From positions 65,236 to 129,235 of the forward strand of contig JAGWBR010000003.1 in NCBI GenBank assembly GCA_021295785.1: a stretch of 64,000 bases of DNA, read 5' to 3'. The notes under the pieces are model-generated. The model searched no databases and was not told where the DNA came from. It saw nothing but the letters and a program-made list of their open reading frames with translations. The stretch is from Gemmatimonadota bacterium. GTDB lineage: Bacteria; Gemmatimonadota; Gemmatimonadetes; Palauibacterales; Palauibacteraceae. This document shows positions 801 to 61,299 of this stretch, in pieces. The position numbers and the translations under genes were made by a program. Every line of letters begins with the position of its first letter. Within the stretch, counting starts at the first letter, position 1.

Positions 801-3099
<2,299 letters not shown>

Positions 3100-3103
<4 letters not shown>

Positions 3104-4188
3104 GCCGGGATCAACTCGCCGTCGGACATCTCGTACTGCGGCAGGCCCCTGGCTCCCCTCGGGCCTTCCTCCGCCCTGGACGACGTGAGAATGAGCTGCG
3201 CCGACTCCCGGCCTCCAAACAGCTCAAGCAGCCGGTTGCTGCGCCCGTCATCCAGTTCGGCAAAAATGTCATCCAGCAGGTAGACCGGTTCCCCGGCCAG
3301 GCGGCGCCTGAGCCGTTCGGCCTCGGCCAGCCGCAGGGCCAGCACTGCCGTGCGCTGCTGCCCGCTGGATCCGTAAACGCGCAGATCTCGGGACCCCTCG
3401 GGCCTTTCGGTAATGAACCGGAAATCGTCGCGGTGCGGGCCGATGGCTGTTGCACCCTGCGCCCTCTCTCTGGAACGCATCGAATCGAGGGCCTCCCGGA
3501 AGTCGGCCGCGTCGTCGGGACCCGAAGGTGCGTACGCCAAGACCCCACCCTCCCCGCCCGACACGTGCGCGAAAAACGACACAAAATCGCTCGAACTCTC
3601 CTGGATCCACGACCCGCGCCGCCGCGTCACGAGAGCACCCGCGTCGACCAACCCGTCCGTCCACGCGTCAATCTCCCCTTCGCTCGCGTCTCGCCGCAGC
3701 GCCTCGTTGCGGCGAACCAGCGCTGCCCGGTAGTTCTGGAGCGCACGCACGTATCCGGGGGATTCCAGCGCCAACGCGATATCGAGAAACCGGCGCCTTT
3801 CGACGGGTGAATTCCTGATGATGGACAGGTCTTCCAGACGGAACACCGAGATGCCGATCCGGCCCAGAGCATCCGACACGCGTTGGACGTCAAGCCCGCC
3901 TGCCTGAACCTTCTTGATCCGTTGCTTCCTGTCGTAAGCAGCAGCAACCCTCCCTCCCCCCTCAACCTCCGCCTCGACCCGGAACACATCTTGGTCGAAC
4001 GCCACAAGATCTCGGTCGGCCGCGCCCCGGAACGACCGGAACACCTCAAGATAACCGATGGCTTCGAGCAGGTTGGTCTTGCCCGCTCCGTTTGGGCCAA
4101 CCACGGCCGCGCCGGTTTCCGGGACCTCCCAGTCCAGCGGCGCCAAGTTCCTGAATCCCCTGATCTTGAGCTTCTTGAGGACCGCCAC
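3100..4188 (-). CDS. recF: DNA replication and repair protein RecF
   Basis: GTG start. VAVLKKLKIRGFRNLAPLDWEVPETGAAVVGPNGAGKTNLLEAI has the Walker A. C-terminal LLDDIFAELDDGR signature. 362 aa. Confidence 0.9.
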
Positions 4189-44680: not shown

Positions 44681-45727
44681 ATGAAAAACGCCTCCTTTCG
44701 ACGTACCCGATTTCGTCGCATCCGGCGCTGGCTGGCGGTACCGCTTCTGCCTGCCGCGATGGCCGGTGCCGCTAGCGATTTGGGCGCGACTCAGGAACCG
44801 GACCATGCCACGGACCGGGACCCGGACTATCTGGGCACCTATTCCATTATTGCCCGGGACCCGGACACGGGCGAACTGGGCATGGGGGTCCAGTCCAAGG
44901 CCTTCGCCGCCGGCAACCGGGCCATGCACGCCCGGGGAGGGGTCGCCGTGATCGCCCACCAGGCCGCGGCGAATCCCATGTACGGAGGAATCGGGCTGGA
45001 GCTGTTGGAGGCCGGGTATTCACCTGAAGAAGCCCTGAACCAGATGGTCGCCGGCGACGAGGGCCGGGAGCGCCGCCAGGTAGCCATCCTGGACATTCGG
45101 GGACGTACCGCGGCATGGACCGGCACCGGGGCCAGCGACTGGAAGGGACACCGCTGCGGAGTCGATTACTGCGCCCAGGGGAATATTCTCACCGGTCCCG
45201 AAGTCGTGGACGCGATGGCGGAGTCCTTCGAGGGTTCTTCGGGGCCGTTGGCCGAACGCCTGCTCGACGCCCTCGATGCGGCGCAGGCGGCCGGGGGCGA
45301 CGCCCGCGGCATGCAGTCGGGTGCCATTCTTGTTGTCAGACCTCGGGTCGGGGGAGGCTTCAGCGACCGGGCGATCGACATTCGGGTGGACGATCATCAG
45401 CGCCCGTTGGCCGAGCTCAGGCGCCTGCTCGACAAGATCAGATCGGGTGAGATGCTGAGCGGGGCCCGCCGGTTGGCCAGAGAAGGAGAACTGAGCGCCG
45501 CGCTGCGTCAGGCCCAGGAGGCCGCGTTCAGATCGCAGGACAATGACAACGCGTGGATGACCCTGGCCGAAATCCACGCCGGTCTGGAGATGTGGAACGA
45601 GACGATCGAATCGCTCCAGAGGGCCGTGGCCCTTAACCAGTGGCGGCGCGCCGCGCTGGCCGACCACCCCGGCTTCGAGCCCCTTCGCGACGACCCCCGG
45701 TTTCGTGAACTGGTCCGGCCCCGGTGA
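44681..45727 (+). CDS. DUF1028 (Ntn-hydrolase-fold) protein with C-terminal TPR-like helical region
   Basis: GTYSIIARDPDTGELGMGVQSKAFAAGNRAMHARGGVAVIAHQAA is a DUF1028 signature; the first residue after signal cleavage is T/S. C-terminal helical repeats (AWMTLAEIHAGLEMWNETIESLQRAVALNQ). Confidence 0.7.
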   Translation: MKNASFRRTRFRRIRRWLAVPLLPAAMAGAASDLGATQEPDHATDRDPDYLGTYSIIARDPDTGELGMGVQSKAFAAGNRAMHARGGVAVIAHQAAANPMYGGIGLELLEAGYSPEEALNQMVAGDEGRERRQVAILDIRGRTAAWTGTGASDWKGHRCGVDYCAQGNILTGPEVVDAMAESFEGSSGPLAERLLDALDAAQAAGGDARGMQSGAILVVRPRVGGGFSDRAIDIRVDDHQRPLAELRRLLDKIRSGEMLSGARRLAREGELSAALRQAQEAAFRSQDNDNAWMTLAEIHAGLEMWNETIESLQRAVALNQWRRAALADHPGFEPLRDDPRFRELVRPR

Positions 45728-45757: not shown

Positions 45758-46003
45758 GTGTTGCCTTCCGCCGGGGACATGATCGCGCGGATCGATCAGC
45801 CTTTTGGAAGCCTGCTGTTCAGCCTGTTGGAGCCTCGGTCCGACGACGGCTTCGCCACCCGGGGATTCTTGGCCGACCGCCTGGAGGCAGGCGCGGTATC
45901 CCGTTTCACGGGTGCCGAGAGGCTGAACGAGCGCACGAAATTTGCGGGGTCCGAGGAATTCTGCCGCCCGATCATGAAGCGCGCGGGACGGAAGGAACCC
46001 TGA
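45758..46003 (+). CDS. Small hypothetical ORF (81 aa) ending 4 nt before the P450 fusion gene start
   Basis: Its TGA at 46001-46003 is followed by cgta and the ATG at 46008. A GGAAGGAA Shine-Dalgarno-like sequence lies inside its 3' end. No family recognised; could be a small operon-leader ORF. Confidence 0.25.
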   Translation: MLPSAGDMIARIDQPFGSLLFSLLEPRSDDGFATRGFLADRLEAGAVSRFTGAERLNERTKFAGSEEFCRPIMKRAGRKEP

Positions 46004-46007
46004 CGTA

Positions 46008-48407
46008 ATGTTTGCCGGACTTCGCGATCTTCGGCGCCGCGTGCGTGATACCACGGGGTTATTCGCCGAGCTGCACCGCCAGGGCGGGGCCATGGCCGAT
46101 TACCGCATCCTCGCCAAACGGTTCAATGTGGTTTTCGACCCGGAAATAATGGAAGAGGCACTGCTCCGGAAGCACGCCTGTTTGGGCAAGGGCAAGCAGC
46201 AACAGCGCACGCTCGACAACCTCTGCATCGTCACCGCCGACGGCGATGATCACAAGTGGCGCCGCAAACTGTTGCAGCCTTCCTTCACGCCGAATGCGCT
46301 GCGCGGCTACGCGGTGGCGATGGTTGAGGAGGCCGTTCGGCAGCGCGACTCGGTTCGTGACGGGCAGGAGCTCGACATCGATCACCTCAGCCACGAACTG
46401 TCCCTTTCCATCACGGCCCGGACGTTCTTCGGGGACGACCTGCACGTTGAGCCTGCGATCATGAAGGAAGCGCTGGCAGGTTACCGGTGGCGGGCCGTCT
46501 TGGGGCTGCTTCCCCTGGGGCGTGTGGTTAAGGCCCTGCCCCTGCCCCGCACCATCGCCAGCGAGAGGGCGATCAAGCGGCTGGACGACCGTGTTTACGA
46601 GGCCATCCGCAAAGCCCGGGCCAGCGCGCAGGAGCGCACTGATCTGATTGCCCACCTTGTGGCCGCCTGGGATGAGGGGCACCCTGCGGGGACATTTCCG
46701 GAAAGCGCGCTCAAAGACGAGGCTTTCGCGATCTTGGTGGCGGCTCACGAGAACACTGCGGTAACGCTGACTTGGTGCTTCTATCATCTGAGCCGTAACC
46801 CCGGGGCCCGCGAGCGCCTCGAAGCCGAGTTGGAAGAGGTACTTGGCCACCGTCTGCCGGACTTCGACGACGTTGAACGCCTGGTGTACACGAAGGCGGT
46901 AATGGACGAGACCATGCGACTGACCCCGACCGCAACGTATTTGGGTCGTACTGCGCTAGAGGATATTGAGTTGGGCGGTCGGCAAATCCCCAGACACTCT
47001 GTGACGCAGTTTTCGATCCGCACTCCGATGCGGGATGCGAAGTACTTCCCCCAACCGGAACGCTTCCGGCCCGAGCGCTGGCTCTCGTCCTCCGCCGACC
47101 TTCCGCGTCTGGCCTACGCGCCGTTCGGTGCCGGCAACCGGTTCTGCAGCGGGTTCAGGTTTGCCACCATCCAGATGGTACTGGCACTGGCGATCATTGC
47201 CCGGCGCTGGCGGTTTGAGCTGGTCTCCAAGGAAGATCCGGCAGTCGTTGATTTCATCATCTACAAATGCAAGGATGGTCTGCCGGTTGTGGCCCGCGAG
47301 CGGACAGGCAAGGCAGAAATTCCCGTTGGTGGCCCGCGAGCGAAACTTCAAACGAGGGGCCAGAAGGGCGGTCGCGTGACCGACATTCCGCCGGTTTTTG
47401 TCTTCAGCACCGGTCGGTGCGGCTCAACCATGGTCTCGGAGATGCTGAACCAGCACCCGGGCGTGCTCAGCATGTCCGAGTTCTTTGCGCAGCTCGGGGT
47501 GGCGGCTTTCACCCGGAAGAAAATCAGCGGCGACGAGATGTGGCGGATGTACAGCGAGCACACGCCCCGAATGCGGATCGTGACGTACGAGGGCCTGACC
47601 GAGGTGCTCTACCCGTTCACAGATCCCGTTGCCCGCTTCAACGCGGAAAACCTCCCGCCGATTCTGGCCGTGACGCTTCCTCACCTGACTGACAAGTACG
47701 AAGAACTGTTCGACGAGCTGGGTCCGGCCGTGCGCGCGATGTCCGACGCCACACCCGCCGACCATATCAGGGCGCTCTGCCAGTGGCTGTGCCAGCGACG
47801 GGGCTCAAGGGTGTGGGTGGAGCGTCATGGCGGCTCACTGATCCTTGCTTCGCGACTGCTGCGCTACTTCCCCGAGGCAAGGATTGTGCATATGTACCGG
47901 GACGGCCGTGAGACGGCGTTGTCGATGGCGAAACACCCTCCGTTCAAGCTGGCGCTGGCTCGGGCCAGGCGGGCCAGGCGTATTGGCCTTGACGCGTACC
48001 GTTTGCTCGAACGGTTCGAGCGGCGGGACCGGCTAACCCAGGCGATTCAGAAGGCCCAGTGGCGGATGACCGACCTGGACGCCTTCATGGCCGAGGAAGC
48101 GACCCTGCCCGAGGCGGCGGAACTCTGGAGCAAGATGATCGAAACCGGGCACCGGGTCTTCGGCCATTTCCCCCCCGACCGGCTGCTGAACCTGCGGTTC
48201 GAAGACATGCAACAGAATCCGGCTGAAGAGGCGCGTCGCCTCATCCGGTTCATTTCGCCGGAACTCGACGACGACGCTTGGGTAGCCGAGGTGGCGAAGA
48301 TCCCGCGCCAGACAGAATCGAAATTTGCGCAGCTGGACTCGGCCCAGCAGGCCGCGATCACGGCCGCGTGCCGCCCCGGGCTCGAGCGGCTGGGGTATTC
48401 GTCCTAG
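46008..48407 (+). CDS. Cytochrome P450 :: PAPS-dependent sulfotransferase fusion protein (799 aa)
   Basis: N-terminal approx. 430 aa has P450 signatures: I-helix VAAHENTAVTLTW, ExxR DETMRLTP, haem-binding loop FGAGNRFCSGFRFA (FxxGxRxCxG). C-terminal approx. 340 aa (from about 47388) has the sulfotransferase 5'-PSB P-loop PPVFVFSTGRCGSTMV and 3'-PB YRDGRETALSM (Sulfotransfer_3-like). Single uninterrupted frame; ATG at 46008. Confidence 0.85.
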   Translation: MFAGLRDLRRRVRDTTGLFAELHRQGGAMADYRILAKRFNVVFDPEIMEEALLRKHACLGKGKQQQRTLDNLCIVTADGDDHKWRRKLLQPSFTPNALRGYAVAMVEEAVRQRDSVRDGQELDIDHLSHELSLSITARTFFGDDLHVEPAIMKEALAGYRWRAVLGLLPLGRVVKALPLPRTIASERAIKRLDDRVYEAIRKARASAQERTDLIAHLVAAWDEGHPAGTFPESALKDEAFAILVAAHENTAVTLTWCFYHLSRNPGARERLEAELEEVLGHRLPDFDDVERLVYTKAVMDETMRLTPTATYLGRTALEDIELGGRQIPRHSVTQFSIRTPMRDAKYFPQPERFRPERWLSSSADLPRLAYAPFGAGNRFCSGFRFATIQMVLALAIIARRWRFELVSKEDPAVVDFIIYKCKDGLPVVARERTGKAEIPVGGPRAKLQTRGQKGGRVTDIPPVFVFSTGRCGSTMVSEMLNQHPGVLSMSEFFAQLGVAAFTRKKISGDEMWRMYSEHTPRMRIVTYEGLTEVLYPFTDPVARFNAENLPPILAVTLPHLTDKYEELFDELGPAVRAMSDATPADHIRALCQWLCQRRGSRVWVERHGGSLILASRLLRYFPEARIVHMYRDGRETALSMAKHPPFKLALARARRARRIGLDAYRLLERFERRDRLTQAIQKAQWRMTDLDAFMAEEATLPEAAELWSKMIETGHRVFGHFPPDRLLNLRFEDMQQNPAEEARRLIRFISPELDDDAWVAEVAKIPRQTESKFAQLDSAQQAAITAACRPGLERLGYSS

Positions 48408-48632
48408 CGCGCTATCGCGGGAATACTCACCGGTGGATGTCCCTGGCGACGCGAAAACCCATTGTGGAGGCGCTATGAGCGAGCCCCTGTCAGTTTGTCG
48501 TCCCGAATCTCCTGCTCGCTCAGCGGCTCGCAAGCGCAGCCAGTGTCCTCACCACCACTTTCACGAAATTCATGCTGCCCGTAACGCCCCACGCTAGAGC
48601 GCTAGTTGAGTTTGCGCAATTCATTGTCTAGA

Positions 48633-49727
48633 ATGCCGCGCCTACGACGCCAAACTCCGAGGTGCGTTTTGCCCAACATCGATACGCCCCCCGTGTTTGT
48701 GGTCAGCACCGGGCGGTGCGGTTCTACGATGGTCTCCAACATGGCCCGGCTGCACCCCCGGATTCTTAGCGTGTCCGAGTTCCTGGCGTGCCTGGCCGAC
48801 AAGGCGCTTGTTGGATCCCATCTTGACGGCGAGGGGTTGTACGAGCGCTTCGCCAATCTGCGCCCCGTTGGGAAGGCCCTGCTCCGCAACAACCTGATCG
48901 TCAGCGAATACCTCTACCCCGTTGGGCAGCCCGGGTCCCGGTTCGGACCCCGGGACGTGCCGGCAATCATGGGAGCTACGCTACCCCACCTGTCGGACGA
49001 CCCGGAAGCCCTCTGGGACGAGCTTGTCCCCGTGATCCGGGCGCGTGGCCGGTACACCTTGCAGGCCCAGTACAGGTTCTTTTTTGAATGGCTGGCCGTC
49101 CGTTTCGGCAAGGATGTGTGGATTGAACGGTCCGGGGCTTCGATTCTCAGCGTCCCGACCCTGGCCAGGCTCTTCCCCGACGCCCGTTTCGTGCATGTCT
49201 ACCGCGACGGCCGCGACACGGCCATCTCCATGCGGGGCCACTACGTGTTCCGCATGTACCTGGGCATGGCGATGCGTGGCAGGCGCGTCGGCATGGATTC
49301 TTTCAGCCCGCGCAACTGGCCGGGGACCAGTCGTTGGGTGCCCTGGTTCACTCCTCTGGTGTTTCGGAGCTTTGACGCCAAAGCCGACAATTTCCGCGAC
49401 AATCCCGCCGCGCTGCACGAGTTCGGGTGGTTGTGGAGCAGTATGATCGAACGGGGTACCAGATACTTGGACGCGCTCCCGAAGGACCGCGTCCTCAACA
49501 TGCGCTTTGAGACTGTACTAGAATCCCCCAAAGATGAAATGCGGCGGTTTGCCGAATTCGTGGGCCCAGGATTCGTGGACGAAGACTGGCTTGAACGGAT
49601 CACCTTGCTTCCCCGCAAGAAGACACCCAGCTGGATGAAGTTGACTTCCGACGAGCATGCCCGCCTGGCCGCAGCATGCACACCTGGACAGCGGATTCTG
49701 GAATACGCCCAAGACGAGCAGTCGTGA
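48633..49727 (+). CDS. Sulfotransferase (Sulfotransfer_3-like), paralogue of the C-terminal domain of the upstream fusion
   Basis: MPRLRRQTPRCVLPNIDTPPVFVVSTGRCGSTMVSNM (5'-PSB) and ARFVHVYRDGRDTAISM (3'-PB). Collinear similarity to residues about 460-799 of the fusion through to the C-terminus (VLNMRFETVLESPKDEMRRF vs LLNLRFEDMQQNPAEEARRL). The ORF track starts at TTG 48606; ATG 48633 is preferred. Confidence 0.8.
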   Translation: MPRLRRQTPRCVLPNIDTPPVFVVSTGRCGSTMVSNMARLHPRILSVSEFLACLADKALVGSHLDGEGLYERFANLRPVGKALLRNNLIVSEYLYPVGQPGSRFGPRDVPAIMGATLPHLSDDPEALWDELVPVIRARGRYTLQAQYRFFFEWLAVRFGKDVWIERSGASILSVPTLARLFPDARFVHVYRDGRDTAISMRGHYVFRMYLGMAMRGRRVGMDSFSPRNWPGTSRWVPWFTPLVFRSFDAKADNFRDNPAALHEFGWLWSSMIERGTRYLDALPKDRVLNMRFETVLESPKDEMRRFAEFVGPGFVDEDWLERITLLPRKKTPSWMKLTSDEHARLAAACTPGQRILEYAQDEQS

Positions 49728-50932
49728 TCACTACCGAGACCCGCGAGTTGGCTCAGTATCCCGAGACGGGACCCGCATGTTACCGCGAGCGTTTCGACCG
49801 GACTGTTGCGAAGGTGGGGCCGGCACTGGCCAGAGAATACGTCATCCAGGCCCAGGTTGGCGACCCGCCGGCCGATGTCGCGGTGCAGGAGCTGCAGCCG
49901 CGCGGGGTGACCGAGATCAACCGGCTGATCCGGGCCGGAATGGACCGCGACAAGGAGACGCTGAAGGAAGCGCCGCGATCACTGATCGACCTCTTTGAAG
50001 AGGTCAACGAACCGCCCGACTGGTGGGATCCCAAGGTGGCACAGGCCGGGATAAGGGCGTTCCATGCTCATTCCGACCTGTTTATTCCGGCCCTCTTCGT
50101 GTCCACGGTCCAGAACGCCTCCACGCTGATCGCGAAGTCGTTCCATGCCACCGGGCGCGTCAATTCACAGTTCGGGCCCAGGCGAATTCGCCAAAACACG
50201 CGCCACTTTATCGAAATCATGATGCCGGGCGGCCTGGACCGCGAGGGAGAAGGCTGGCGCCTGTCGGTGCGTATTCGTCTGGTGCACGCCCAGATTCGGC
50301 GCTTGATCCTGGATTACGGCGAGTGGGACGAAGCGACTTTCGGGGCCCCGATCCACGCCGCTCATTTGGGGGTCGCGGCGGCCAATTTTTCGGCCGGAAT
50401 GCTGCGCCATGCGACCGCGCTGGGTGCATCCCTCAGTGCGGAAGCCCGCGAGGGGTTCATGCATGCCTGGCGATACGCGTCATTGCTGACTGGTATCCCT
50501 GAAAGACTCCTTTTCGAAGGGAACGAAGAGAAGACGCGAGAGCTGTGGCGGACCGCCCGGGCGATTGAACCTCCGCCGGGCGAAGAGTCACTCGTCATCG
50601 CCACGGCCCTGTTCGACGCTCTGCCGAGGATTGCGGGCAAGCGGGAGGGGAAGGAATTCGACCAGGTGCGCACCCACGCCGCCCGCGTAACCCGGGCGCT
50701 AATTGGCCGGAAAACTGCAGACCGCCTGGAGTTGGCCCGGGGCATGCCGGGGGCGATGGCGGCGATGCGAACGCGGCGCAAACTCACCGGGCAACTGCAT
50801 AAGGTTGCGCCGACGGTCGCCGCGGCATGGCGCGCATCGGCCTTTTCCTTCCTGTTGGATGCTGCGCTGCTCGATGACCTGAAGTACACGCTGCCCGACA
50901 AGCTCAAGGCCACCGAGGCTACCCCCTGGTGA
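49724..50932 (+). CDS. MpaB/DUF2236-family (latex-clearing-protein-like) putative oxygenase
   Basis: GTG at 49724 overlaps the sulfotransferase TGA (GTGA). Conserved DUF2236 blocks: PDWWDPKVAQAGIRAFHAHSDL, RRIRQNTRHFIEIMMPGG, WRLSVRIRLVHAQIRR. About 400 aa. Confidence 0.65.
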   Translation: MITTETRELAQYPETGPACYRERFDRTVAKVGPALAREYVIQAQVGDPPADVAVQELQPRGVTEINRLIRAGMDRDKETLKEAPRSLIDLFEEVNEPPDWWDPKVAQAGIRAFHAHSDLFIPALFVSTVQNASTLIAKSFHATGRVNSQFGPRRIRQNTRHFIEIMMPGGLDREGEGWRLSVRIRLVHAQIRRLILDYGEWDEATFGAPIHAAHLGVAAANFSAGMLRHATALGASLSAEAREGFMHAWRYASLLTGIPERLLFEGNEEKTRELWRTARAIEPPPGEESLVIATALFDALPRIAGKREGKEFDQVRTHAARVTRALIGRKTADRLELARGMPGAMAAMRTRRKLTGQLHKVAPTVAAAWRASAFSFLLDAALLDDLKYTLPDKLKATEATPW

Positions 50933-50976
50933 CCGCACCCCGGCACTGGTGAACCGCGCTTCGGCGGGACTGAACC

Positions 50977-51342
50977 GTGCCGCCTGAACTCAAACGGTGC
51001 CCCCGTTATCCGTGGACCTGCGTGAACAGCCACGATACCGTCCGGCCAAGATGTACCATTGCCCCCTTCACGATCGCCGGGGACCCGTGGCAGGAATTCG
51101 GGCGCCTCGCGGAGATCGTGCGCCGTCAGCCCCGCACCAAAATCGATACTGTGACCCAGGACTATCTGAGTGCGCGGTTCAGGACCCGGATCGCCTTCCC
51201 CGACCGGCTCGAACTCGTCTTGTCCCCGGACCAAGGAGTGATTCACGTGCGCTCGATGTCGATTCTGGCCCCGATTTGGGACTTTGGAGCGAATCGCAGG
51301 AGGGTCGAGTCCCTACGTGTCCAGTTTGAAGGCGAACGCTAG
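50977..51342 (+). CDS. Small hypothetical protein, DUF1499-like (tentative)
   Basis: 121-aa ORF between the oxygenase and cysD. C-terminal ...[21 protein letters not shown] resembles the DUF1499 motif. Family assignment is from memory and not certain. Confidence 0.35.
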
Positions 51343-51350
51343 GCCCGCCC

Positions 51351-52253
51351 GTGCGTGACGATCGCGTCCTGGCTGCCCTTGAGGACGAGGCGATCGAGAT
51401 CATCCGCGAGGGAGTGGCCGCGGCTTCCCGCCCCGTCATGCTCTATTCGATCGGCAAAGACTCCTCGGTCTTGCTTCGCCTGGCGCAGAGGGCTTTCTGG
51501 CCGGCCCCGCTGCCGATGCCTCTGCTGCACGTTGACACGACCTGGAAGTTCCGGGAGATGATCCAGTTCCGGGACCGCACGGCTGCCGAGGACGGGATCA
51601 AACTGATCGTGCACACCAATCAAGAAGGCGTGCAGGCTGGCGTCACGCCGTTCACGCATTCTTCGTCGCGCTATACCGAGGTGATGAAGACCGAGGCGCT
51701 GCGGCAGGCGCTCGACGCCGGCGGCTATGACATGATCTTCATCGGCGCCCGCCGGGACGAAGAGAAGTCGCGCGCCAAGGAGCGGATTTTCTCGTTTCGG
51801 AATGCGGCCCACCAGTGGGAGCCGCGGGCCCAGCGCCCCGAACTCTGGAACCTCTACAACACCCGGCTCGGGGCTGGCGAGTCGCTGCGGGTTGCCCCGA
51901 TGTCCAACTGGACCGAGGCCGACATCTGGCGCTACATCGCCGCCCGGGAAATCCCGATCGTGTCGCTTTACCATGCGGCCGAGCGGCCGGTGGTGGAGCG
52001 CGAGGGACAGCTCATCATGGTGGACGACGACCGCATGCCCCTGAATCCCGGCGAGGCGCCTGAGTCCCGGTTGGTGCGTTTTCGGACCCTGGGCTGCTAT
52101 CCCCTGACCGCCGCGGTCGAGAGCACGGCGACCACGCTGGACGCGATTATCGCCGAGACCCTGGCCGCCGACGGTTCGGAGCGCGAGGGACGCCTGATCG
52201 ACCACGATGACGAGGCCTCGATGGAGAAGAAGAAGCGGGACGGCTACTTCTGA
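51351..52253 (+). CDS. cysD: Sulfate adenylyltransferase subunit 2
   Basis: GTG start. [18 protein letters not shown] is the PAPS-reductase-like PP-loop. Motifs [50 protein letters not shown]. 300 aa. Confidence 0.95.
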
Positions 52254-54109
52254 TGGGCCGAGAAGTAACCTCCCCAACCTCCAACCGGCTTGCCCCACTC
52301 CGCCTTGTGCTTTGCGGGAGCGTGGACGACGGCAAGAGCACCTTGATCGGGCGAATGCTGTACGACAGCAACCAAGTCTTCGCCGATCAGCTCGGCAAAG
52401 TCGAAGCTGACTCTCGGCGGTGGGGCACGCAAGGCGAGAACATCGACCTCGCGCTGCTCCTGGACGGTTTGCAGGACGAACGCGAGCAGGGCATCACGAT
52501 CGATGTCGCCTACCGCTCTTTGGAGACGCCGCGGCGGCGGTTCATTGTTGCCGATGTGCCCGGCCACGAGCAGTACACGCGCAACATGGCGACGGGTGCC
52601 TCCACCGCGCAGGTGGCCATAATCCTGGTCAACGCGCGCCGGGGGATTCTGCCGCAAACGGCCCGCCACACGCGGATCGCGGCCATGTTCGGGGTGCGCC
52701 ATGTGGTGCTGGCGGTCAACAAGATGGACCTGGTCGATTGGGACCAGGCAACGTTTGAGGCGCTCGAAGAAGAGTACCGGGAGCTGACGGACGACGTCGG
52801 CGTGCCCGAGGTGGTGGCCATGCCGGTGTCCGGCCTGACCGGCGACAACCTCACGCGCCGCTCGGACAACATGCCCTGGTACGACGGTCCGACCCTGCTG
52901 GAGCACCTCGAAACCGTGCAAGTGACAGACCCGGGCGATGATGCCCCGTTCAGGATGCCGGTCCAGTACGTGAACCGCCCCCATTCGGAGTTCCGCGGGT
53001 ACTGCGGCCGCGTGGCTTCCGGGACGGTTAAACCCGGGCAGCGGATCCGGGTGGTGCCCGGGAGCAGCGAGTCACCGGTGAAATCGGTTCTGGTTGGCCG
53101 GGGCGAGGTCGAGCGCGCGGGCCGCGGCGATTCGGTCACGCTGACCTTTTCCACCGAGATTGACGTGACACGCGGGGACGTGATCGCCGACGCCGAAGAC
53201 GCACCGGCAGTCTCGGACCAGTTCCGCGCCTCGATCCTGTGGATGGGCGAGCAGCCGTTGGTGGCCGGGCGCCTGTACCTGCTCAAGATGCACACCCGCG
53301 AGGTCACGGCGAAGGTCACGTCCATTCGTCACTCGGTGGAGGTGCGCACCGGGGAGCGGCTTGCCGCCAAGCAGCTTGAGCTGAATGAGATCGGCGTGGT
53401 GAATTTGGCCACTTCCCGGCCCGTCCCGTTTGCCCCGTTCGAGGAGAACGGGAAGCTGGGCGGGTTCATCTTGGTGGACCGGGGCAACAACCGAACGGTT
53501 GCGGCAGGCACGATCAGTTACGCGCTCATGCGGGCAGCCAACGTGACGTGGCAACAATTCGACATCAGCCGCGAGGTCCGGGCGCAGCTCAAGCGGCAGG
53601 ATGCCCGGTGTCTGTGGTTCACGGGCCTGTCCGCGTCGGGCAAGTCCACGGTGGCGAATCTGCTGGAGCGACGCCTCTACATCGAAGGGCGGCACACCTA
53701 CCTGCTGGACGGCGACAACGTGCGCCACGGGTTGAACGCCGACCTGGGCTTCACCGAGATCGACCGTACCGAGAACATCCGGCGCGTGGCCGAGGTTGCG
53801 CGTTTGATGGTAGACGCCGGGTTGATCGTGATTGTGTCGTTCATCAGCCCGTTCCGGGCCGACCGCGAGATGGCGCGGGGGCTTTTCGAACCCGGGGAAT
53901 TTCTTGAGGTATTCATTGATGCGTCCGCCGAAGAGTGTGCCCGGCGCGACCCCAAGGGGCTCTACGCCAAGGCCCTGCGCGGCGAGATCAAGAACTTCAC
54001 GGGGATCAGCAGTCCGTACGAGCGGCCAGAGGAGCCCGAGATCCACCTCAGCACCGAGGAATTGTCGCCCGAAGACTGCGTCGAGGAGCTCCTCCGCAAA
54101 CTGAATTAG
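52253..54109 (+). CDS. cysNC: Bifunctional sulfate adenylyltransferase subunit 1 / adenylylsulfate (APS) kinase
   Basis: ATG overlaps the cysD stop (TGATG). N-terminal GTPase LRLVLCGSVDDGKSTLIGRML...DVPGHEQY...NKMD (CysN). C-terminal APS kinase CLWFTGLSASGKSTVANLL...LDGDNVRHGLNADLGFTE...SFISPFRADR (CysC). Confidence 0.95.
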   Translation: MGREVTSPTSNRLAPLRLVLCGSVDDGKSTLIGRMLYDSNQVFADQLGKVEADSRRWGTQGENIDLALLLDGLQDEREQGITIDVAYRSLETPRRRFIVADVPGHEQYTRNMATGASTAQVAIILVNARRGILPQTARHTRIAAMFGVRHVVLAVNKMDLVDWDQATFEALEEEYRELTDDVGVPEVVAMPVSGLTGDNLTRRSDNMPWYDGPTLLEHLETVQVTDPGDDAPFRMPVQYVNRPHSEFRGYCGRVASGTVKPGQRIRVVPGSSESPVKSVLVGRGEVERAGRGDSVTLTFSTEIDVTRGDVIADAEDAPAVSDQFRASILWMGEQPLVAGRLYLLKMHTREVTAKVTSIRHSVEVRTGERLAAKQLELNEIGVVNLATSRPVPFAPFEENGKLGGFILVDRGNNRTVAAGTISYALMRAANVTWQQFDISREVRAQLKRQDARCLWFTGLSASGKSTVANLLERRLYIEGRHTYLLDGDNVRHGLNADLGFTEIDRTENIRRVAEVARLMVDAGLIVIVSFISPFRADREMARGLFEPGEFLEVFIDASAEECARRDPKGLYAKALRGEIKNFTGISSPYERPEEPEIHLSTEELSPEDCVEELLRKLN

Positions 54110-54281
54110 AGCCCGGATGGCGTGATACAGGGTGGTTTCCGTGTTTGCAACGGCATCTGGGATCTGGTTTGCAATCCCCAACCGGACGGCGCCGAGGTCC
54201 GGTTAGGTTCCTCAAGCACCGCACTACCCCATACAGGAGTACGTCATGGTACGCCGCCACACAGCTCAAGTCCGTGGCCGC

Positions 54282-55361
54282 ATGGTGGCTGGCTCAACGG
54301 TCGCACCGGTCCTTGTTTCCGTTCTGGTCGGTCCCGGGACACGGGCCGCCCAGGGCCAGGATCGCGTCGGACCGGAGGTGATCGAGATCACGTCGGGAGT
54401 TGGTGCCGTCCTGCAGGCAGTGAGTCCCGTGTCGGATTCGGTGGTATGGATGAGCGGGCACGAGGGCGTGATCATCAGAACCCTCGACGCAGGAGACCGC
54501 TGGGAACGGGTGAACGCCCCCAGTGGCGACTCGCTTCAGTTTCGGGACGTCCACGGTTTCTCGGCAGCGCATGCGGTGGCGCTGAGCGCGGGCTCGGGAC
54601 CCGCGTCGCGCATCTACCGAACTGCGGACGGAGGCCGGAGCTGGGAGCTCGCGTTCGCCATGGACCATCCGGATGGCTTCCTCGACTGCCTGGACTTCTG
54701 GGACGACGGCCGAGGTTTCGCCTACGGAGACAGCTTTGACGGCGTACCCTACATCCTGGTAACCGCCGACGGAGGCGCGACTTGGGAACGGGCACCGCGG
54801 GACGGGCTGCCGGCCGCCAACGAAGGCGAGGGGGGCTTTGCGGCGAGCGGCACCTGCGCGAGGGCGGTCGGCGACGGACTCGGCTGGATCGGCACCGGGG
54901 CCGGCGGGTCCGCCCGCGTGCTGAGGACCAGCGACTACGGCGCAACCTGGACCGCGACCGATGTGGACATCGCGAGGGGGCCAAGCGCGGGGGTTTACAC
55001 GCTGGCCGTGGATCCGGCGGTGGCATCAGGCACCAGCGGTTGGGTCTTGGCACTGGGCGGAGACTATGCGGCCGATGCCGTCCTGGCCAATGTGGCCGTC
55101 AGTTCGGACCTCGGCGGGAGCTGGCGGCACGGAGAGGACGCCCCCGTCCCCGGGGCCATCTACGGCAGCGCGATCGCCCACGACGAAACGGGCCTCACCG
55201 CGGTGGCCGTTTCCCCCGCCGGCGCGGCTTTCACGACGACTTTGGGAATGTCCTGGACATCTCTGCCCGGCGTTAGCGCATGGGCGGTTGAGGCCGCCCC
55301 AACAGGAACAATGTTCTGGGCCGCCGGAGCGGAGGGCAGGATCTTGCTAATCGCGTTCTGA
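54282..55361 (+). CDS. BNR-repeat (Ycf48/sialidase-like beta-propeller) exported protein
   Basis: Signal peptide MVAGSTVAPVLVSVLVGPGTRAAQGQ. Five S/TxDxGxxW BNR repeats (TADGGRSWE, TADGGATWE, SDYGATWT, SSDLGGSWR, TTLGMSWT). Confidence 0.7.
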   Translation: MVAGSTVAPVLVSVLVGPGTRAAQGQDRVGPEVIEITSGVGAVLQAVSPVSDSVVWMSGHEGVIIRTLDAGDRWERVNAPSGDSLQFRDVHGFSAAHAVALSAGSGPASRIYRTADGGRSWELAFAMDHPDGFLDCLDFWDDGRGFAYGDSFDGVPYILVTADGGATWERAPRDGLPAANEGEGGFAASGTCARAVGDGLGWIGTGAGGSARVLRTSDYGATWTATDVDIARGPSAGVYTLAVDPAVASGTSGWVLALGGDYAADAVLANVAVSSDLGGSWRHGEDAPVPGAIYGSAIAHDETGLTAVAVSPAGAAFTTTLGMSWTSLPGVSAWAVEAAPTGTMFWAAGAEGRILLIAF

Positions 55362-55549: not shown

Positions 55550-57415
55550 CTAGGTCTCGGCGGCCTCGGCCTCGGATTCGGCCTGGGCGTACAGCTCGTC
55601 AATCTGGTCGCCGAAGCGGGCCATGATTACCCGGCGCTTCACCTTCAGGGTGGGGGTCAGTTCCCCGGTGTCTACGCCAAACGGGCCCGGCACAAGGAGC
55701 ACGGCCCGGGGTTTTTCGTGCCGGGCCGCGTCCGCCACCGCTGCCTCCACCGCTGCCTCCAACACGGCCTGGGTGGCCTCCGACGTCAGCAGTTCGGCGT
55801 CAGACGTTCCCGCGGGAACGTCTGAAGCCGCCCGGAGCGCCGCCATCTCGGGAACCACGAGCACGGCCGCGAACTTCCTTTGGTCGCCGATCAGCACGGC
55901 CTCCTCAATGAGCGAGTGCCGTTTGAGCATGGCTTCGACCGGCTGGGGAGCGATGTTCTTGCCGTAGGCGTTGACGATGATTTCCTTCTTCCGATCTGTA
56001 ATACGCAAGTACCCGTCCTCGTCAATCGTCCCGATGTCACCGGTAGCAAACCACCCGTCGCTGTCGATCGCCTCGGCCGTGGCCTCCGGGTTTTGGTAGT
56101 AACCCCTCATGATCTGCGGACCGCGGGCCAGTATTTCCCCGTCGTCGGCGATCTTGAGTTCGGTTCCCGGGGCAGCCAGGCCGACGGTCCCGACCCTTGG
56201 CCGATCCTCTGGGTTCAGCGTGAGCACCGGCGAGGTCTCCGTGAGGCCATAACCCTCCAGAACCGGCAATCCGGCCGCAAACAGGAAATGCGCCACATCG
56301 GCCCGCAGGGGCGCGCCCCCGCTGACGAATGTCCGGATGCGCCCCCCGGTCAGCGCGCGCAGCTTGGAAAACACCAGTTTGTCGGCCACGGCGTACTGAA
56401 GGTTGAGCCAGGCACCAGGCTTTTCGCCGGCCAGTTTCATCTTGGCGCGGCGCTCGCCGACGTCCCGGGCCCACTTGAAGATGCCGTACTTGGCCGAGCC
56501 CCCCGCGCGGGCCTTGGCCTCGGCCCCCTCGACGACCTTCTCGAATACTCTGGGCACTGCAATCATAACCGTGGGGCGCACCTCCCCCATGTCACGCACC
56601 ACGGTCTCGGGGGCTTCCGCGTAGGCGATCCGATTCCCGGCCAACCACATCACAAAGTGCCCGCCAACTCGCTCGAACACGTGGGCCATGGGCAGAAGCG
56701 CCAGGGCAGTATCCTCCGGCCCGAGTCCCACCGGGCGCGCCGCGAGCGCCGCGTTGGAGTGGACGTTGGCATGGGTCAGCATCACGCCCTTGGGGAGTCC
56801 GGTCGTGCCCGAGGTGTAGATGATGGTCGCCAGGTCGCCCGGGTCGGTGTCGCGGGCGAACTCCTCCCACGAGTCGGCCAACTCTTGGCCGTTTTGTTCG
56901 CCGCGTGCGATCAGTTCGTCCATCGTCACCGCGCCAAACGGGACCTTCTCATCTCCGAGCGCGGCCCTGGGCGATCCGTCAAACAGCACGGCAAGCCGGA
57001 GTTCCGGCAGGTCGGGAGCTATCGACGCCAGCAGGGCCAGCTTCTCTTCGTCTTCCACGAAAACCGCGGAAGCGCCGGAATCCGCCAGGACGTGCTTGAC
57101 CTGATCGGCGGGAAGAATGGGATAGACCGGGACCGACACCGTCCGGGAAGTGATCACCCCCCAGTCGGCCAGCGCCCATTCGAGCCGCGTGGTGGACATG
57201 ATCGCGATTCGGTCACCGGGCTGAAATCCGAGTTCGCGCAGGCGTGTGGCGACGGCCTGCACCAGTCGCTTCACCTCGGCCAGCGGAACGCGGCTCCAGC
57301 CATCGTCTCCGCGGATTGTGTAGGGGTCGGGCCGTTCCATGTTCAGTCCTTCAAAAAACAGGTCGGCCAGGGTGCCGGTCCGGTAATCACGTGGGAGAGG
57401 TGTAGATGTTCTCAT
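55550..57415 (-). CDS. Long-chain-fatty-acid--CoA ligase (AMP-dependent synthetase/ligase, ACSL-type)
   Basis: ATG at 57415. AMP-binding signature IIYTSGTTGLPKGVMLTH. Motifs TGDIGTIDEDGYLRITDRKKEIIV and GKNIAPQPVE. Insertion typical of long-chain ACSL enzymes. 621 aa. Confidence 0.9.
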   Translation of the reverse strand: MRTSTPLPRDYRTGTLADLFFEGLNMERPDPYTIRGDDGWSRVPLAEVKRLVQAVATRLRELGFQPGDRIAIMSTTRLEWALADWGVITSRTVSVPVYPILPADQVKHVLADSGASAVFVEDEEKLALLASIAPDLPELRLAVLFDGSPRAALGDEKVPFGAVTMDELIARGEQNGQELADSWEEFARDTDPGDLATIIYTSGTTGLPKGVMLTHANVHSNAALAARPVGLGPEDTALALLPMAHVFERVGGHFVMWLAGNRIAYAEAPETVVRDMGEVRPTVMIAVPRVFEKVVEGAEAKARAGGSAKYGIFKWARDVGERRAKMKLAGEKPGAWLNLQYAVADKLVFSKLRALTGGRIRTFVSGGAPLRADVAHFLFAAGLPVLEGYGLTETSPVLTLNPEDRPRVGTVGLAAPGTELKIADDGEILARGPQIMRGYYQNPEATAEAIDSDGWFATGDIGTIDEDGYLRITDRKKEIIVNAYGKNIAPQPVEAMLKRHSLIEEAVLIGDQRKFAAVLVVPEMAALRAASDVPAGTSDAELLTSEATQAVLEAAVEAAVADAARHEKPRAVLLVPGPFGVDTGELTPTLKVKRRVIMARFGDQIDELYAQAESEAEAAET

Positions 57416-58965: not shown

Positions 58966-61299
58966 TCACATCCTTACGATGAGATTACCGCCGGCAGGGT
59001 CGCCAGGCAACGCGCCGGCCGGCACGGGGCCCGACCCGTCGTCCGCCGGTGGCGATGCCCTGCCGATGACGGCGGCACCCCGGTCACCGGCTTCGCGGAG
59101 CCTGGCGACGACGGCCGAGGCCTGCCCGGGGGCCACTCCGAACAGAAGACCGCCCGATGTCTGGGGGTCAAACAGGAGTTCGGAGCGCACCGCGCGGAGT
59201 GGATCGCCTGCCCCGCCGCCCTGCTCCCCGGTTTCCGGGTCCACATTCCGGACAAAACGGATCTTGGCACGGAGGCGGGCGTTGTCAGGATGGAACGTGC
59301 TCCGGACTCCGGTCGCCAACAAAGGAAGCGCACCCGGCAAGGCGGGGAGAGACGCCAACCCAACCGTAACAGTGACGCCCGACGCCTCGGCCAGGGTCAT
59401 CAAGTGGCCAGCCAAGCCGAACCCGGTCACGTCGGTGGCTCCCGTCGCGCCCGCATCCCGTGCAACCCGCGCCGCGTTCCGGTTGGTGCGCACCATGGAC
59501 TCAAGCGCCGCCTGGAGCCACGCCCCGCGCGCCAGACCCAGCATGTCGCCGCGCAACACGACCCCGGTCCCCAGCGGTTTGGTGAGGATGATCTCCTGCC
59601 CGGGCAGGATTCCGCTGACGAGCAACGGCTCCTCCGCGCCCAAGAAACCCTCCACGTGGAATCCGACCGAGGTTTGCGATCCGACCACGGTGTGGCCGCC
59701 CACCAGAACGGTCCCGGTGGACGAGAGGACCTCCCGCGCCCCGCTCATTATTTGGTGCAACATCTCTTGCCGGTCGTCCGGTGTCGCCTGTTCGGGCACT
59801 GACACGACCGCCTGGGCAACTCCTGGCCGAACTCCCTTGGCCAGCACGTCCGAAACGGCGTTGGCCGCGGCAACACGCCCGAGCGTGTACGGGTCGTCCG
59901 TGAACTGGCGCACAATATCAACGCTGGCCACGACCGCCTCGCCGCCGGGAGTGCGGTAGGCGGCGGCGTCTTCCAACGGGCTCAGGCAAGGCACTATCGA
60001 GCCGGCCGCCCCCTTGGGGGAACCGAGCCGGTCGAGCACTGATTCCAGCTCGGCACGACCGAGTTTCGCCGCGCATCCACCGCAGGTCTCGTTCATGGAA
60101 GCCAGCATCGCAGCGGGACGCCGGAACTGCCGAGCCACCGCGCCGTCGGGGCCCAACACTTGGAAGCGCTTCATGAAGCGGCGGTCGATAAGGGCCTTCA
60201 GGCGCCAGGCCAGCGCACCCCCAAACACCAGTGACCCCTTTGCGCCGACCGCGCTGCCGTCACCCAGGTTGAGGAGGGTGAGGAACCGCCGCTGCGGCCG
60301 GTAGCGGGCGAACCTGCCGGACGGGCCGCCCGATCCGCCACGCAGCAAGGTCCCGGCGGCGCGGCGCAGGTTCTTGGCGAGCACTGGTCCCTGACGCACC
60401 GCGTACACACCGGCCTTGGGCACCCACGGGGCGACCTCCAACGCGGCGCAGTCCCCCACCGCGAACACCCTCGGATGCCCTCTGGCCTGGAGGGTCGGCC
60501 CCACCAAGACAAATCCGGCCGAATCCACCGCGAGTTCGCCCGGATCGAACCCGGCGGGCGGCGCGGCACCGGTGGTCCACAGCACGACCCTGGCTCGCTC
60601 AAACGCGGGAGTCGGCTCAGACGACGACCGGGACCACTCCAAACTCACGCCGTCGCGAGAGACCGCGCGAACCCGGCAGGACGTCAGAACCCTGATCCCC
60701 CGCCGCCGGGCTTCGGCCCGAATCCGGCGGGCGACCTGCTCCGGGTATCCCGGGAGAATGCGGTCCGAGGCCTCGATGAGAGTCGCCCGGCCCGAGCGAG
60801 CCGCAACCGCGAAGGCCAGTTCCACCCCCCCCGCCCCCGCACCGACCACTACCGCACTGGCGGGCTCAGACGGGTCAAGCGCACTCAGCCTCGCCGCCAG
60901 AGCGTCCCCAAACCGACCGAGCGGCCGCGTGGGAACCACATGCTCGGCAGCGCCCGGAACATCCATACCGCGGACGGAGGACCCGATATCGAAAGACACC
61001 AAGTCATATCGCAGTGCGGGTCGATCGGCCAGCAAGATCCGGCGACCGGCCAGGTCAACGCCCCGTGCCGCGGACAAAACCACGCGTGCCCCCGCCATCC
61101 GGGCCAGGGGCACGATGTCGATTTCCAATTGTTCGGCGGAGTACTGCCCGGCCACCAACCCGGGCACCATGCCCGAATAGACGGCGACCGGCACATCCAC
61201 TACCACGGTCACCCGCACCGCCGCCGGCAGCGACCGCATGACAATGCTTTTCAACACCTGCACGTGGGCGTGACCACCACCCACCAGCACCAGGTCCAC
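58966..61299 (-). CDS. selD: Fusion protein: FAD-dependent pyridine nucleotide-disulfide oxidoreductase (NADH-dehydrogenase-like) :: selenide, water dikinase (selenophosphate synthetase)
   Basis: GTG start. VDLVLVGGGHAHVQVL...AVVVGAGAGGVELA...VFAVGDCAA are the two Rossmann FAD/NAD motifs. From about aa 440: MNETCGGCAAKLG (SelD N-terminal Cys loop, Cys not Sec), then the AIR-synthase-like fold (VVASVDIV...DPYTLGRVAAANAVSDVLAKG; TDVTGFGLAGHL). Confidence 0.85.
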   Translation of the reverse strand: MDLVLVGGGHAHVQVLKSIVMRSLPAAVRVTVVVDVPVAVYSGMVPGLVAGQYSAEQLEIDIVPLARMAGARVVLSAARGVDLAGRRILLADRPALRYDLVSFDIGSSVRGMDVPGAAEHVVPTRPLGRFGDALAARLSALDPSEPASAVVVGAGAGGVELAFAVAARSGRATLIEASDRILPGYPEQVARRIRAEARRRGIRVLTSCRVRAVSRDGVSLEWSRSSSEPTPAFERARVVLWTTGAAPPAGFDPGELAVDSAGFVLVGPTLQARGHPRVFAVGDCAALEVAPWVPKAGVYAVRQGPVLAKNLRRAAGTLLRGGSGGPSGRFARYRPQRRFLTLLNLGDGSAVGAKGSLVFGGALAWRLKALIDRRFMKRFQVLGPDGAVARQFRRPAAMLASMNETCGGCAAKLGRAELESVLDRLGSPKGAAGSIVPCLSPLEDAAAYRTPGGEAVVASVDIVRQFTDDPYTLGRVAAANAVSDVLAKGVRPGVAQAVVSVPEQATPDDRQEMLHQIMSGAREVLSSTGTVLVGGHTVVGSQTSVGFHVEGFLGAEEPLLVSGILPGQEIILTKPLGTGVVLRGDMLGLARGAWLQAALESMVRTNRNAARVARDAGATGATDVTGFGLAGHLMTLAEASGVTVTVGLASLPALPGALPLLATGVRSTFHPDNARLRAKIRFVRNVDPETGEQGGGAGDPLRAVRSELLFDPQTSGGLLFGVAPGQASAVVARLREAGDRGAAVIGRASPPADDGSGPVPAGALPGDPAGGNLIVRM

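Follow-up and report, generated by a model that had tools for sequence, protein, structure and literature searches.

In a 64,000-nucleotide stretch of contig JAGWBR010000003.1 from a Gemmatimonadota bacterium (assembly GCA_021295785.1, positions 65,236 to 129,235; hereafter the window, with a G+C content of ~65%), a run of plus-strand genes joins two kinds of oxygenase to sulfation. The run encodes a cytochrome P450 fused to a sulfotransferase (ST), a second sulfotransferase (ST2), a candidate haem oxygenase of the MpaB/Lcp family (DUF2236), and the CysD and CysN-CysC proteins for the synthesis of 3′-phosphoadenosine 5′-phosphosulfate (PAPS). We propose that these genes are a co-inherited oxidation-and-sulfation module. 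Its substrate is probably a small, lipophilic molecule that exists already, and the likeliest candidates bear an isoprenoid or alkenyl chain. The P450 would hydroxylate this molecule, and the sulfotransferase joined to the P450 would sulfate the new hydroxyl at once with locally made PAPS. ST2 would sulfate a second position or a second intermediate, and the MpaB-like oxygenase would act on a C=C bond in the molecule, either cleaving or oxygenating it. In relatives of the cluster, a short-chain dehydrogenase/reductase (SDR) would reduce the carbonyl left by cleavage to a sulfatable alcohol, and pumps of the resistance-nodulation-division (RND) or major facilitator superfamily (MFS) type would export the anionic, amphiphilic product.

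The assignments come from a listing of open reading frames (ORFs) together with profile searches (Pfam, NCBIfam), motifs, and two AlphaFold2 (AF2) structure models. The listing and the profile searches reproduced the domain calls and coordinates of a preliminary description of this DNA. The fusion gene, at 46008–48407, encodes 799 amino acids (aa), with PF00067 at residues 19–411 (208.1 bits against a cut-off of 22.8) and Sulfotransfer_3 and Sulfotransfer_1 at residues 462–755 (76.3 bits against a cut-off of 27, and 39 bits, respectively). Its P450 domain takes up residues 1 to ~441 (46008–47330), and its sulfotransferase domain, here called type 1, takes up residues 458–799 (47379–48407). Positions 47331–47378 encode the last 16 residues of the linker, which is ~25 aa in all. 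ST2 (48669–49727, 352 aa) matches Sulfotransfer_3 at 66.5 bits (cut-off 27), and the 402-aa MpaB-like protein (49724–50932) matches PF09995, MPAB_Lcp_cat, at 51.5 bits (cut-off 23). A DUF1499 protein (51022–51342, 106 aa, or 121 aa if read from 50977; PF07386, 79 bits) precedes CysD, the small subunit of sulfate adenylyltransferase (51351–52253; PRK12563, 477 bits against 413). The last gene, at 52253–54109, encodes CysN-CysC, in which the large subunit is joined to adenosine 5′-phosphosulfate (APS) kinase (PRK05506, 926 bits against 715; domains GTP_EFTU and, at residues 452–599, APS_kinase). By these matches, CysD and CysN-CysC are intact orthologues of the PAPS-forming complex. The whole run recurs, exactly or at 99% identity, in three assemblies: L001 (Logan), L005 (a 143-kb contig in the European Nucleotide Archive, ENA), and L030 (LXNJ01000325.1), the last from the metagenome of the sponge Petrosia ficiformis (PMC5099237).

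The first line of evidence for a functional unit is synteny. A genome scan with a 7-sequence P450 alignment led to relatives of the cluster, and P450, sulfotransferase, and MpaB-like genes, with or without cysD/cysNC, were found to co-locate in about 23 other loci of uncultured bacteria, with rearranged gene order. Eight of the loci compared are from Longimicrobiales (L006–L012 and L014, among which L006 and L011 are near-duplicates, as are L007 and L014). They hold a P450 52–57% identical to that of the window, usually along with a second P450 type, as well as one or two ST2-type orthologues (54–66% identity; 54–68% when the one in L111 is included), an MpaB-like gene (26–53%), cysD (75–80%), and, where the fetched stretch shows it, cysNC (66–68%). 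The genes lie side by side, their orders and orientations differing. Each of the eight loci whose MpaB-like protein is at least 47% identical to that of the window has a sulfotransferase gene within the stretch fetched, and in most the two genes are immediate neighbours.

Further syntenic loci are L025, L027, L028, L029, L031–L034, L110, and L111, and the arrangements among them are diverse. L028, on a 3.97-Mb contig, reads cysD-cysNC-MpaB-ST, with the P450 gene convergent; L029 reads RND pump-MpaB-ST-ST-P450-P450. On the 3.24-Mb circular contig of L111, SDR::P450-ST-cysD-cysNC-DUF1499 faces STAS-MpaB-permease-P450. In metagenome-assembled genomes (MAGs) of a gammaproteobacterium (L027) and a member of the Holophagales (L110), the orders are cysNC-ST-GPP34::P450 and AraC-MpaB-GPP34-P450 followed by ST and a glutathione S-transferase (GST) gene. 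The claim that the gene set is conserved in relatives is thus borne out, since no fewer than eight loci of Longimicrobiales, and loci of other lineages besides, combine P450, sulfotransferase, MpaB-like, and cysD/cysNC genes. Judging from these arrangements, the clustering goes far beyond chance, and the genes form a real conserved unit.

Could cysD and cysNC nonetheless be ordinary assimilatory genes that lie beside oxygenases and sulfotransferases by coincidence? Both proteins are standard orthologues, and in Mycobacterium tuberculosis a single CysDNC serves assimilation as well as sulfation. Against coincidence, cysD and/or cysNC stand beside sulfotransferase, P450, and MpaB-like genes in 12 other loci, in varied orders and including loci outside the Gemmatimonadota. 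One 5.03-Mb Longimicrobiales chromosome (OZ244837.1) carries two clusters, L007 and L008, each with its own cysD-cysNC. Moreover, cysH, cysI, and cysJ were not found near the cluster within the window. A coincidental adjacency is therefore very improbable. Both clusters on that chromosome also have MFS and AcrB genes; the L008 copy is without the second P450, and its first P450 is apparently split into two ORFs.

The second line of evidence is the fusion itself. L025 has the two as separate genes: its P450 orthologue (74% identity) terminates at a stop codon, and the sulfotransferase (79% identity) begins 5 nt further on. In the window, the stop of the L025-type P450 is gone, and a linker rich in G, R, and K bridges the domains; its length of ~25 aa is counted from the point at which alignment with the P450 of L025 stops. 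A search of 1.84 billion representative proteins gave no second protein with a P450 followed by a sulfotransferase among the matches listed. The fused sulfotransferase domain has 719 homologues, stand-alone among the matches listed and with a top identity of 79%. Fusions in the reverse order, ST::P450, were found in P0360 (791 aa) and P0370 (827 aa). P0338, a 1607-aa protein of metagenomic lineage, contains a sulfotransferase, two cyclic-nucleotide-binding (cNMP-binding) domains, a BFD-like [2Fe-2S] domain, FAD_binding_6, and a P450, and it is possibly a self-sufficient, nucleotide-regulated hydroxylase-sulfotransferase. P450 and sulfotransferase have been fused more than once, independently. 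Fusions in both orders argue that the two activities act within one pathway, and they are Rosetta-stone evidence linking two large, poorly annotated enzyme subfamilies. Together with the recurrent synteny, they uphold the earlier view that oxygenases, sulfotransferases, and PAPS synthesis are linked as a unit.

A second pair of this kind occurs within the cluster family. An SDR of the cinnamoyl-CoA-reductase (CCR)/DFR/aldehyde-reductase type is fused to the second-type P450 in L111 (6819–9221, minus strand) and is adjacent to, and overlaps, the second P450 in L010 (4986–6125); in L008 (20140–21264), it adjoins the MpaB-like gene. The domain in L111 was at one point a lead toward a 3β-hydroxysteroid dehydrogenase (3Beta_HSD), which we rejected: the Epimerase profile scores above 3Beta_HSD, and the best match in the PDB is 5tqm (1.7e-52). 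Since the domain is of the CCR/DFR/aldehyde-reductase type, the sterol-specific hint that it had offered was dropped.

The P450 domain has the features expected of its family, with one departure. The cysteine-ligand loop, FGAGNRFCSG at residue 373, and the ExxR motif (ETMR at 301) are both invariant in homologues. The I-helix (46740–46760, residues ~245–250) reads AAHENT, against a canonical AGxET(T/S). Comparison with the homologues P0006, P0007, P0009, P0010, P0012, P0014, and P0015 revealed the variants HETT, HEST, HVTI, and HHTI across the clade, and in the cluster-linked P450s from Longimicrobiales the acid is lost from the I-helix (ASHVTI, GHHTI). Natural P450s without the I-helix threonine exist and are active, so AAHENT is compatible with membership of the family. 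By sequence, the nearest solved structures are CYP170A1 (3dbg, 3e-43), CYP97A3, CYP3A4, and BM3. Among NCBIfam models, the CYP170A1 albaflavenone monooxygenase scores 206 bits, below its cut-off of 700, and the PtlI pentalenene oxygenase 178 bits, below 800. CYP170A1 and PtlI are nearest neighbours only, and this P450 belongs to neither.

Both sulfotransferases keep the fold of their superfamily and the motifs for PAPS binding. The 5′-phosphosulfate-binding (5′-PSB) motif STGRCGST and the 3′-phosphate-binding (3′-PB) motif (H/Y)xYRDGRxTxxS, which reads YRDGRETALS in the fused domain, are kept in the fused domain, in ST2, and in 30 homologues. ST2 and the fused domain are 39% identical and represent paralogous subfamilies. 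No NCBIfam model matches ST2, the NCBIfam matches of the fusion include no sulfotransferase model, and sequence and profile searches of both proteins against solved structures gave nothing beyond motif-level matches. We place both in a sulfotransferase subfamily without a characterised member, divided into two paralogous types. The AF2 model of the fused domain has a predicted local distance difference test (pLDDT) score of 89, and Foldseek matched it to the tyrosylprotein sulfotransferases (TPST) 1 and 2, the sulfotransferase domains of CurM and olefin synthase (OLS), and Stf9 and Stf1. Template modelling (TM) scores are ~0.45–0.59, at an identity of ~15% (14–15% for the mycobacterial Stf1 and Stf9), and the probability is 1.00 for TPST, CurM, Stf9, and Stf1.

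Some of these structural neighbours raise the question of whether the sulfate stays on the product. CurM, olefin synthase, retinol dehydratase, and LGS1 use sulfate as a leaving group, and all four (4gbm, 4gox, 1x8k, and 22ga) are among the best structural matches of the sulfotransferase domain. Sulfation could accordingly be a transient activation, in which the sulfate departs by elimination or displacement (dehydration, olefin formation, cyclisation) and the end product is sulfate-free; a tight P450-sulfotransferase fusion would suit the channelling of such a labile intermediate. The parallel extends to architecture, since in CurM and olefin synthase the sulfotransferase is also covalently fused to another biosynthetic enzyme and has a similar fold. 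Those domains, however, sit inside polyketide synthase (PKS) modules with a thioesterase (TE), whereas here the partner is a P450, and profile searches found neither PKS nor TE domains in the fusion and its neighbouring genes. The matches in question have only ~12–15% identity and TM scores of ~0.3–0.5, and TPST and Stf1/Stf9, whose products are stable sulfates, match just as well. In addition, two sulfotransferases, a dedicated stoichiometric PAPS supply, and the pumps of the relatives better fit an exported sulfated end product. We regard the transient role of sulfate as quite unlikely.

The same structural search bears on tyrosine sulfation. The best Foldseek matches of the sulfotransferase domain are tyrosylprotein sulfotransferases, and RaxST with RaxPQ is a precedent for a sulfotransferase with PAPS genes. 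A small ORF (45758–46003, plus strand, 81 aa) begins the gene run 4 nt upstream of the P450, and the fusion has a weak match to the NCBIfam model ApyO, a P450 for ribosomally synthesised and post-translationally modified peptides (RiPPs; 131 bits against a cut-off of 525). One may then suppose that a peptide or protein is sulfated in the manner of TPST or RaxST, with the small ORF as a RiPP-like precursor tailored by the P450. The encoded peptide, however, has no tyrosine. Its frame is broken by a 2-bp insertion in L005 and L030, two of the three near-identical assemblies compared, and it has no counterpart upstream of the P450 in related loci. The similarity to TPST, at ~15% identity, is comparable to that of small-molecule sulfotransferases, and we know of no peptide chemistry in the MpaB/Lcp family. 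Tyrosine sulfation of a peptide is, in our judgement, essentially excluded.

The small ORF is a doubtful gene altogether. Its G+C content by codon position is gene-like (0.62/0.52/0.79). It has no Pfam match and a single cysteine, and its shifted frame does not extend the P450. In the P450 frame, a stop lies 30 nt upstream of the ATG. We rejected it as a ferredoxin, as a RiPP precursor, and as an N-terminal extension of the P450, given the lone cysteine, the missing tyrosine, the broken frame, and the upstream stop. The preliminary description had counted it among the cluster members; without a family match or a counterpart, and with its frame broken in two 99%-identical assemblies, it is probably a leader or non-conserved sequence.

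The MpaB-like protein points to the kind of substrate. Its family profile matches Lcp of strain K30 (E 1e-14). Its invariant H188, within VRIRLVHAQ, aligns with the Lcp motif VKTRMVHAAVRH, which we take to hold the proximal haem ligand, H198. Residues that are presumably K167 and T168 in Lcp numbering are replaced by Q and N. The AF2 model (pLDDT 87.5) superposes on Lcp (5o1l, TM 0.65/0.69) and, more weakly, on t-anethole oxygenase (TM 0.41/0.53). The protein thus retains the aligned histidine motif and the fold of haem dioxygenases that cleave alkenes (Lcp and t-anethole oxygenase). Its characterised relatives, namely Lcp, fungal MpaB′, and t-anethole oxygenase, are all haem enzymes to our knowledge, and the reaction that they catalyse is oxidative cleavage of a C=C bond within an isoprenoid or propenyl chain. 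Lcp is secreted and acts on an extracellular polymer, whereas the MpaB-like protein is only 16–18% identical to it, and its sequence has no signal peptide and no N-terminal hydrophobic or transmembrane segment. It is therefore not an Lcp proper; on sequence and model it is assigned to the Lcp/MpaB fold family as a candidate haem oxygenase. An idea that DUF2236 is a tryptophan-modifying “P422” enzyme was discarded, because the paper in question concerns DUF6875 and cites DUF2236 as a known haem family. The cluster would give the large bacterial DUF2236/MpaB branch its first genomic context.

Sponge metagenomes (L035–L109; LXNJ, LXNI, MKWU, and Ga02090xx/Ga02095xx) contain a large expansion of MpaB/DUF2236 paralogues at ~40% identity. 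A 761-aa MMPL-family transporter with sterol-sensing/Patched-like similarity lies beside the paralogue in 19 loci by clustering and in 15 by tblastn; in one example, it is immediately downstream of MpaB. LytB/IspH is near an MpaB paralogue in four loci and adjoins it in one example. DUF1499 recurs next to cysNC in L111, by MpaB paralogues in L093, and weakly in L031, and the Longimicrobiales loci are without it; it may be a genuine accessory of the cluster.

Several features converge on a hydrophobic, isoprenoid-like substrate. The nearest characterised P450s, namely CYP170A1, PtlI, CYP97A3, and CYP3A, are terpene, carotenoid, and steroid or xenobiotic oxidases; relatives contain P450s fused to GPP34 lipid-binding domains; and sterol-sensing MMPL transporters and IspH lie beside MpaB paralogues. 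The SDR and the AcrB/MFS pumps among the accessory partners of the relatives suggest, likewise, that a hydrophobic carbonyl compound or alcohol is handled. A substrate of lipophilic or isoprenoid nature, as first suggested for this cluster, remains the most reasonable guess in view of the Lcp-type histidine and fold of the MpaB-like protein and the terpene, carotenoid, and steroid oxidases among the kin of the P450. In L010 (11952–13205), a gene for a FabH-like β-ketoacyl-acyl carrier protein synthase III (KAS III) is inserted between cysD and cysNC, a possible sign that this variant uses a fatty-acyl or alkyl building block.

Where does this substrate come from? Across the compared loci, the set has no conserved PKS, nonribosomal peptide synthetase (NRPS), terpene synthase, or prenyltransferase. 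The preliminary description had spoken of a biosynthetic gene cluster for a metabolite; without a conserved scaffold-forming enzyme, the genes are better described as a tailoring or conjugation module than as a full biosynthetic cluster, one that may act on an existing or host-derived molecule. The same absence suggests two alternative sources: the membrane isoprenoids of the bacterium itself, as with sulfomenaquinone, or lipids or terpenoids derived from the host or the environment. We consider the two roughly equally likely.

A variant of the proposed module, in which the substrate is exogenous and broad, is phase I/II/III detoxification of lipophilic toxins from the host or environment. The conserved core without scaffold genes would suit it, as would the RND/MFS pumps, AcrB among them, that are interleaved with the cluster genes in L007, L008, L014, and L029. 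L110 has two glutathione S-transferases, an AraC regulator, and RND parts beside its MpaB-GPP34-P450 and sulfotransferase genes. The MpaB expansion was found in sponge metagenomes, that is, in chemically rich hosts, and the P450 resembles CYP3A-type enzymes no less than it does biosynthetic ones. Dedicated PAPS genes and a covalent P450-sulfotransferase fusion suggest, on the other hand, a defined, high-flux substrate, and the window has no pump or regulator near the cluster. Nothing sets detoxification apart from the tailoring of an endogenous lipid. We see detoxification as possible, if somewhat doubtful.

Some observations weigh against the proposed oxidation-and-sulfation module. The departure of the I-helix from the usual acid-alcohol pair suggests that oxygen activation, or the chemistry in general, may differ in this P450 clade from ordinary hydroxylation. 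The window cluster itself has no redox partner for the P450, no exporter, and no SDR. Most MpaB paralogues at ~40% identity have no sulfotransferase linkage, and a P450 homologue at 61% identity, from the same sponge metagenome, also lacks it. Finally, the fusion gene and ST2 are set apart by 261 nt (48408–48668), and this gap contains a promoter-like site at 48606–48634, so the run may comprise at least two transcription units. The site is a hexamer pair, TTGAGT-17-TAGAAT, that weakly matches the consensus; three such sites were found where 1.2 are expected.

The preliminary description had counted nine tightly spaced genes. Only seven ORFs lie between 45758 and 54109, and a count of nine needs a DUF1028 gene upstream (44681–45727) and a BNR gene downstream (54246–55361), neither of which is conserved with the set. 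Tight spacing holds at the 4-nt gap between the small ORF and the P450, at the GTGA overlap of ST2 and the MpaB-like gene, and at the 1-nt TGATG overlap of cysD and cysNC; it does not hold at the 261-nt gap. The DUF1499 gene follows the MpaB-like gene by 89 nt, and cysD follows DUF1499 by 8 nt. An Rfam search of the whole window, the 261-nt gap included, gave no match, and a regulatory RNA was ruled out on that basis. In L005 and L030, the 261-nt gap is 100% identical to that of the window, and the flanking genes differ by 0.5–0.9%; the leader upstream differs by 2.5% plus an indel. The substitutions are so few that the contrast carries no statistical weight. Beside the stand-alone P450 of 61% identity (L002, L003, and L004, from the P. 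ficiformis metagenome), the gene directly after encodes an Amidohydro_2 protein (ACMSD-type decarboxylase/hydrolase family), and in L002 an RND pump is near. L028 has a weaker Amidohydro_2 protein upstream of cysD.

How far is the arrangement precedented? In the rhizobial nodPQ-nodH system, a sulfotransferase stands next to dedicated sulfate-activation genes. Bacteroides thetaiotaomicron BT_0411–BT_0416 comprises a cholesterol sulfotransferase with PAPS genes (PMC9417993). In such loci, the pairing is a mark that a single class of lipid or glycolipid is sulfated. As in both systems, the sulfotransferase of the window and of the 12 other loci adjoins homologues of cysD, cysN, and cysC; unlike here, neither has oxygenases, their substrates already carry a hydroxyl, and their sulfotransferases belong to different subfamilies. 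In cyp128-stf3 of M. tuberculosis, the P450 is proposed to hydroxylate dihydromenaquinone-9, and a PAPS-dependent sulfotransferase is encoded in the same operon, the product being the sulfomenaquinone S881 (PMC6469627). As in that operon, a P450 and a sulfotransferase are encoded together (fused in the window, adjacent in relatives) without scaffold genes. The two M. tuberculosis proteins are, however, separate, and their operon lacks an MpaB-like oxygenase, a second sulfotransferase, and PAPS genes. The likeness that we claim to cyp128-stf3, NodH, and BT_0416 is one of shared gene logic, in that the systems would work alike, and not one of family membership.

The fusion may also be compared with P450 BM3, in which a P450 and a partner domain share one polypeptide and whose haem domains are among the sequence matches. 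In BM3, the partner is a redox partner, whereas here it is a downstream tailoring sulfotransferase; P0338 combines both ideas. A literature search returned nothing relevant on MpaB with a sulfotransferase, on P450-sulfotransferase fusions, or on sulfotransferases of Gemmatimonadota or sponge symbionts. The earlier statement that no comparable cluster is known is therefore to be narrowed. We found no description of the gene combination, of the sulfotransferase subfamily, or of the fusion, but the logic has precedents in cyp128-stf3, BT_0411–BT_0416, and nodPQ-nodH. What is new is the covalent P450::ST, the uncharacterised sulfotransferase subfamily with its two types, the conserved linkage to an Lcp/MpaB-type protein, and the distribution in sponge symbionts. 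If the proposed functions are correct, P450::ST and its reverse-order counterparts would be useful as one-pot hydroxylation/sulfation biocatalysts.

For the P450, ST2, CysD, and CysNC, the nearest genomic relatives are in MAGs labelled Longimicrobiales or Gemmatimonadetes. Together with the near-identical copy in LXNJ, they lead us to infer that the window bacterium is a Longimicrobiales-like Gemmatimonadota symbiont of P. ficiformis. The module occurs in symbionts of several bacterial phyla, in metagenomes of Petrosia, Sarcotragus, and Aplysina sponges, and also in other Longimicrobiales MAGs. Sponges are rich in bioactive sulfated lipids and terpenoids. According to a review, the pathway by which sponge meroterpenoids are made has not been identified, and their sulfation may be carried out by host or symbiont. 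A conserved, PAPS-self-sufficient module in sponge symbionts is, in this respect, a concrete, clonable candidate. It is tempting to propose that it is the genetic basis of sulfated metabolites (terpenoids, meroterpenoids, or sterol-like compounds) that have traditionally been ascribed to sponges, an extension that we hold to be rather unlikely. If it were true, symbionts would oxidise isoprenoids of the host or of their own making and sulfate them with their own PAPS. P450::ST would then be a new kind of bifunctional “hydroxylate-and-sulfate” enzyme, and the P450s with atypical I-helices, together with the Lcp-like dioxygenase, would carry out as yet undescribed chemistry.

The window also encodes gyrB, recF, LptF/G, an MsbA-like ABC transporter, and a lipid A acyltransferase, which indicates chromosomal DNA of a diderm bacterium. 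An origin in a plasmid or mobile element was rejected, as plasmids gave distant cysD/cysN matches only and the window has gyrB and recF. The position of these two genes, at 801–4188 on the minus strand, suggests a region near the chromosomal replication origin.

Around the cluster, the genes are unrelated to it. Upstream are sugar oxidoreductases, a symporter, galactokinase, cytochrome c peroxidase, and an amidohydrolase. A FadD-like ligase had been remarked upon as a downstream neighbour: it is indeed 1.44 kb downstream on the minus strand (55550–57415), with the BNR gene between it and CysN-CysC, but it is not a conserved part of the cluster. The ligase, the BNR protein, and the DUF1028 protein were all rejected as members, since they accompany the cluster only in same-strain copies. 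Further downstream are GTP cyclohydrolase I, a Pyr_redox::AIRS protein, and a TonB receptor. A 777-aa protein at 58966–61299 on the minus strand combines an N-terminal pyridine-nucleotide-disulfide oxidoreductase with the N- and C-terminal domains of an AIR-synthase-related (SelD/ThiL-like) protein.

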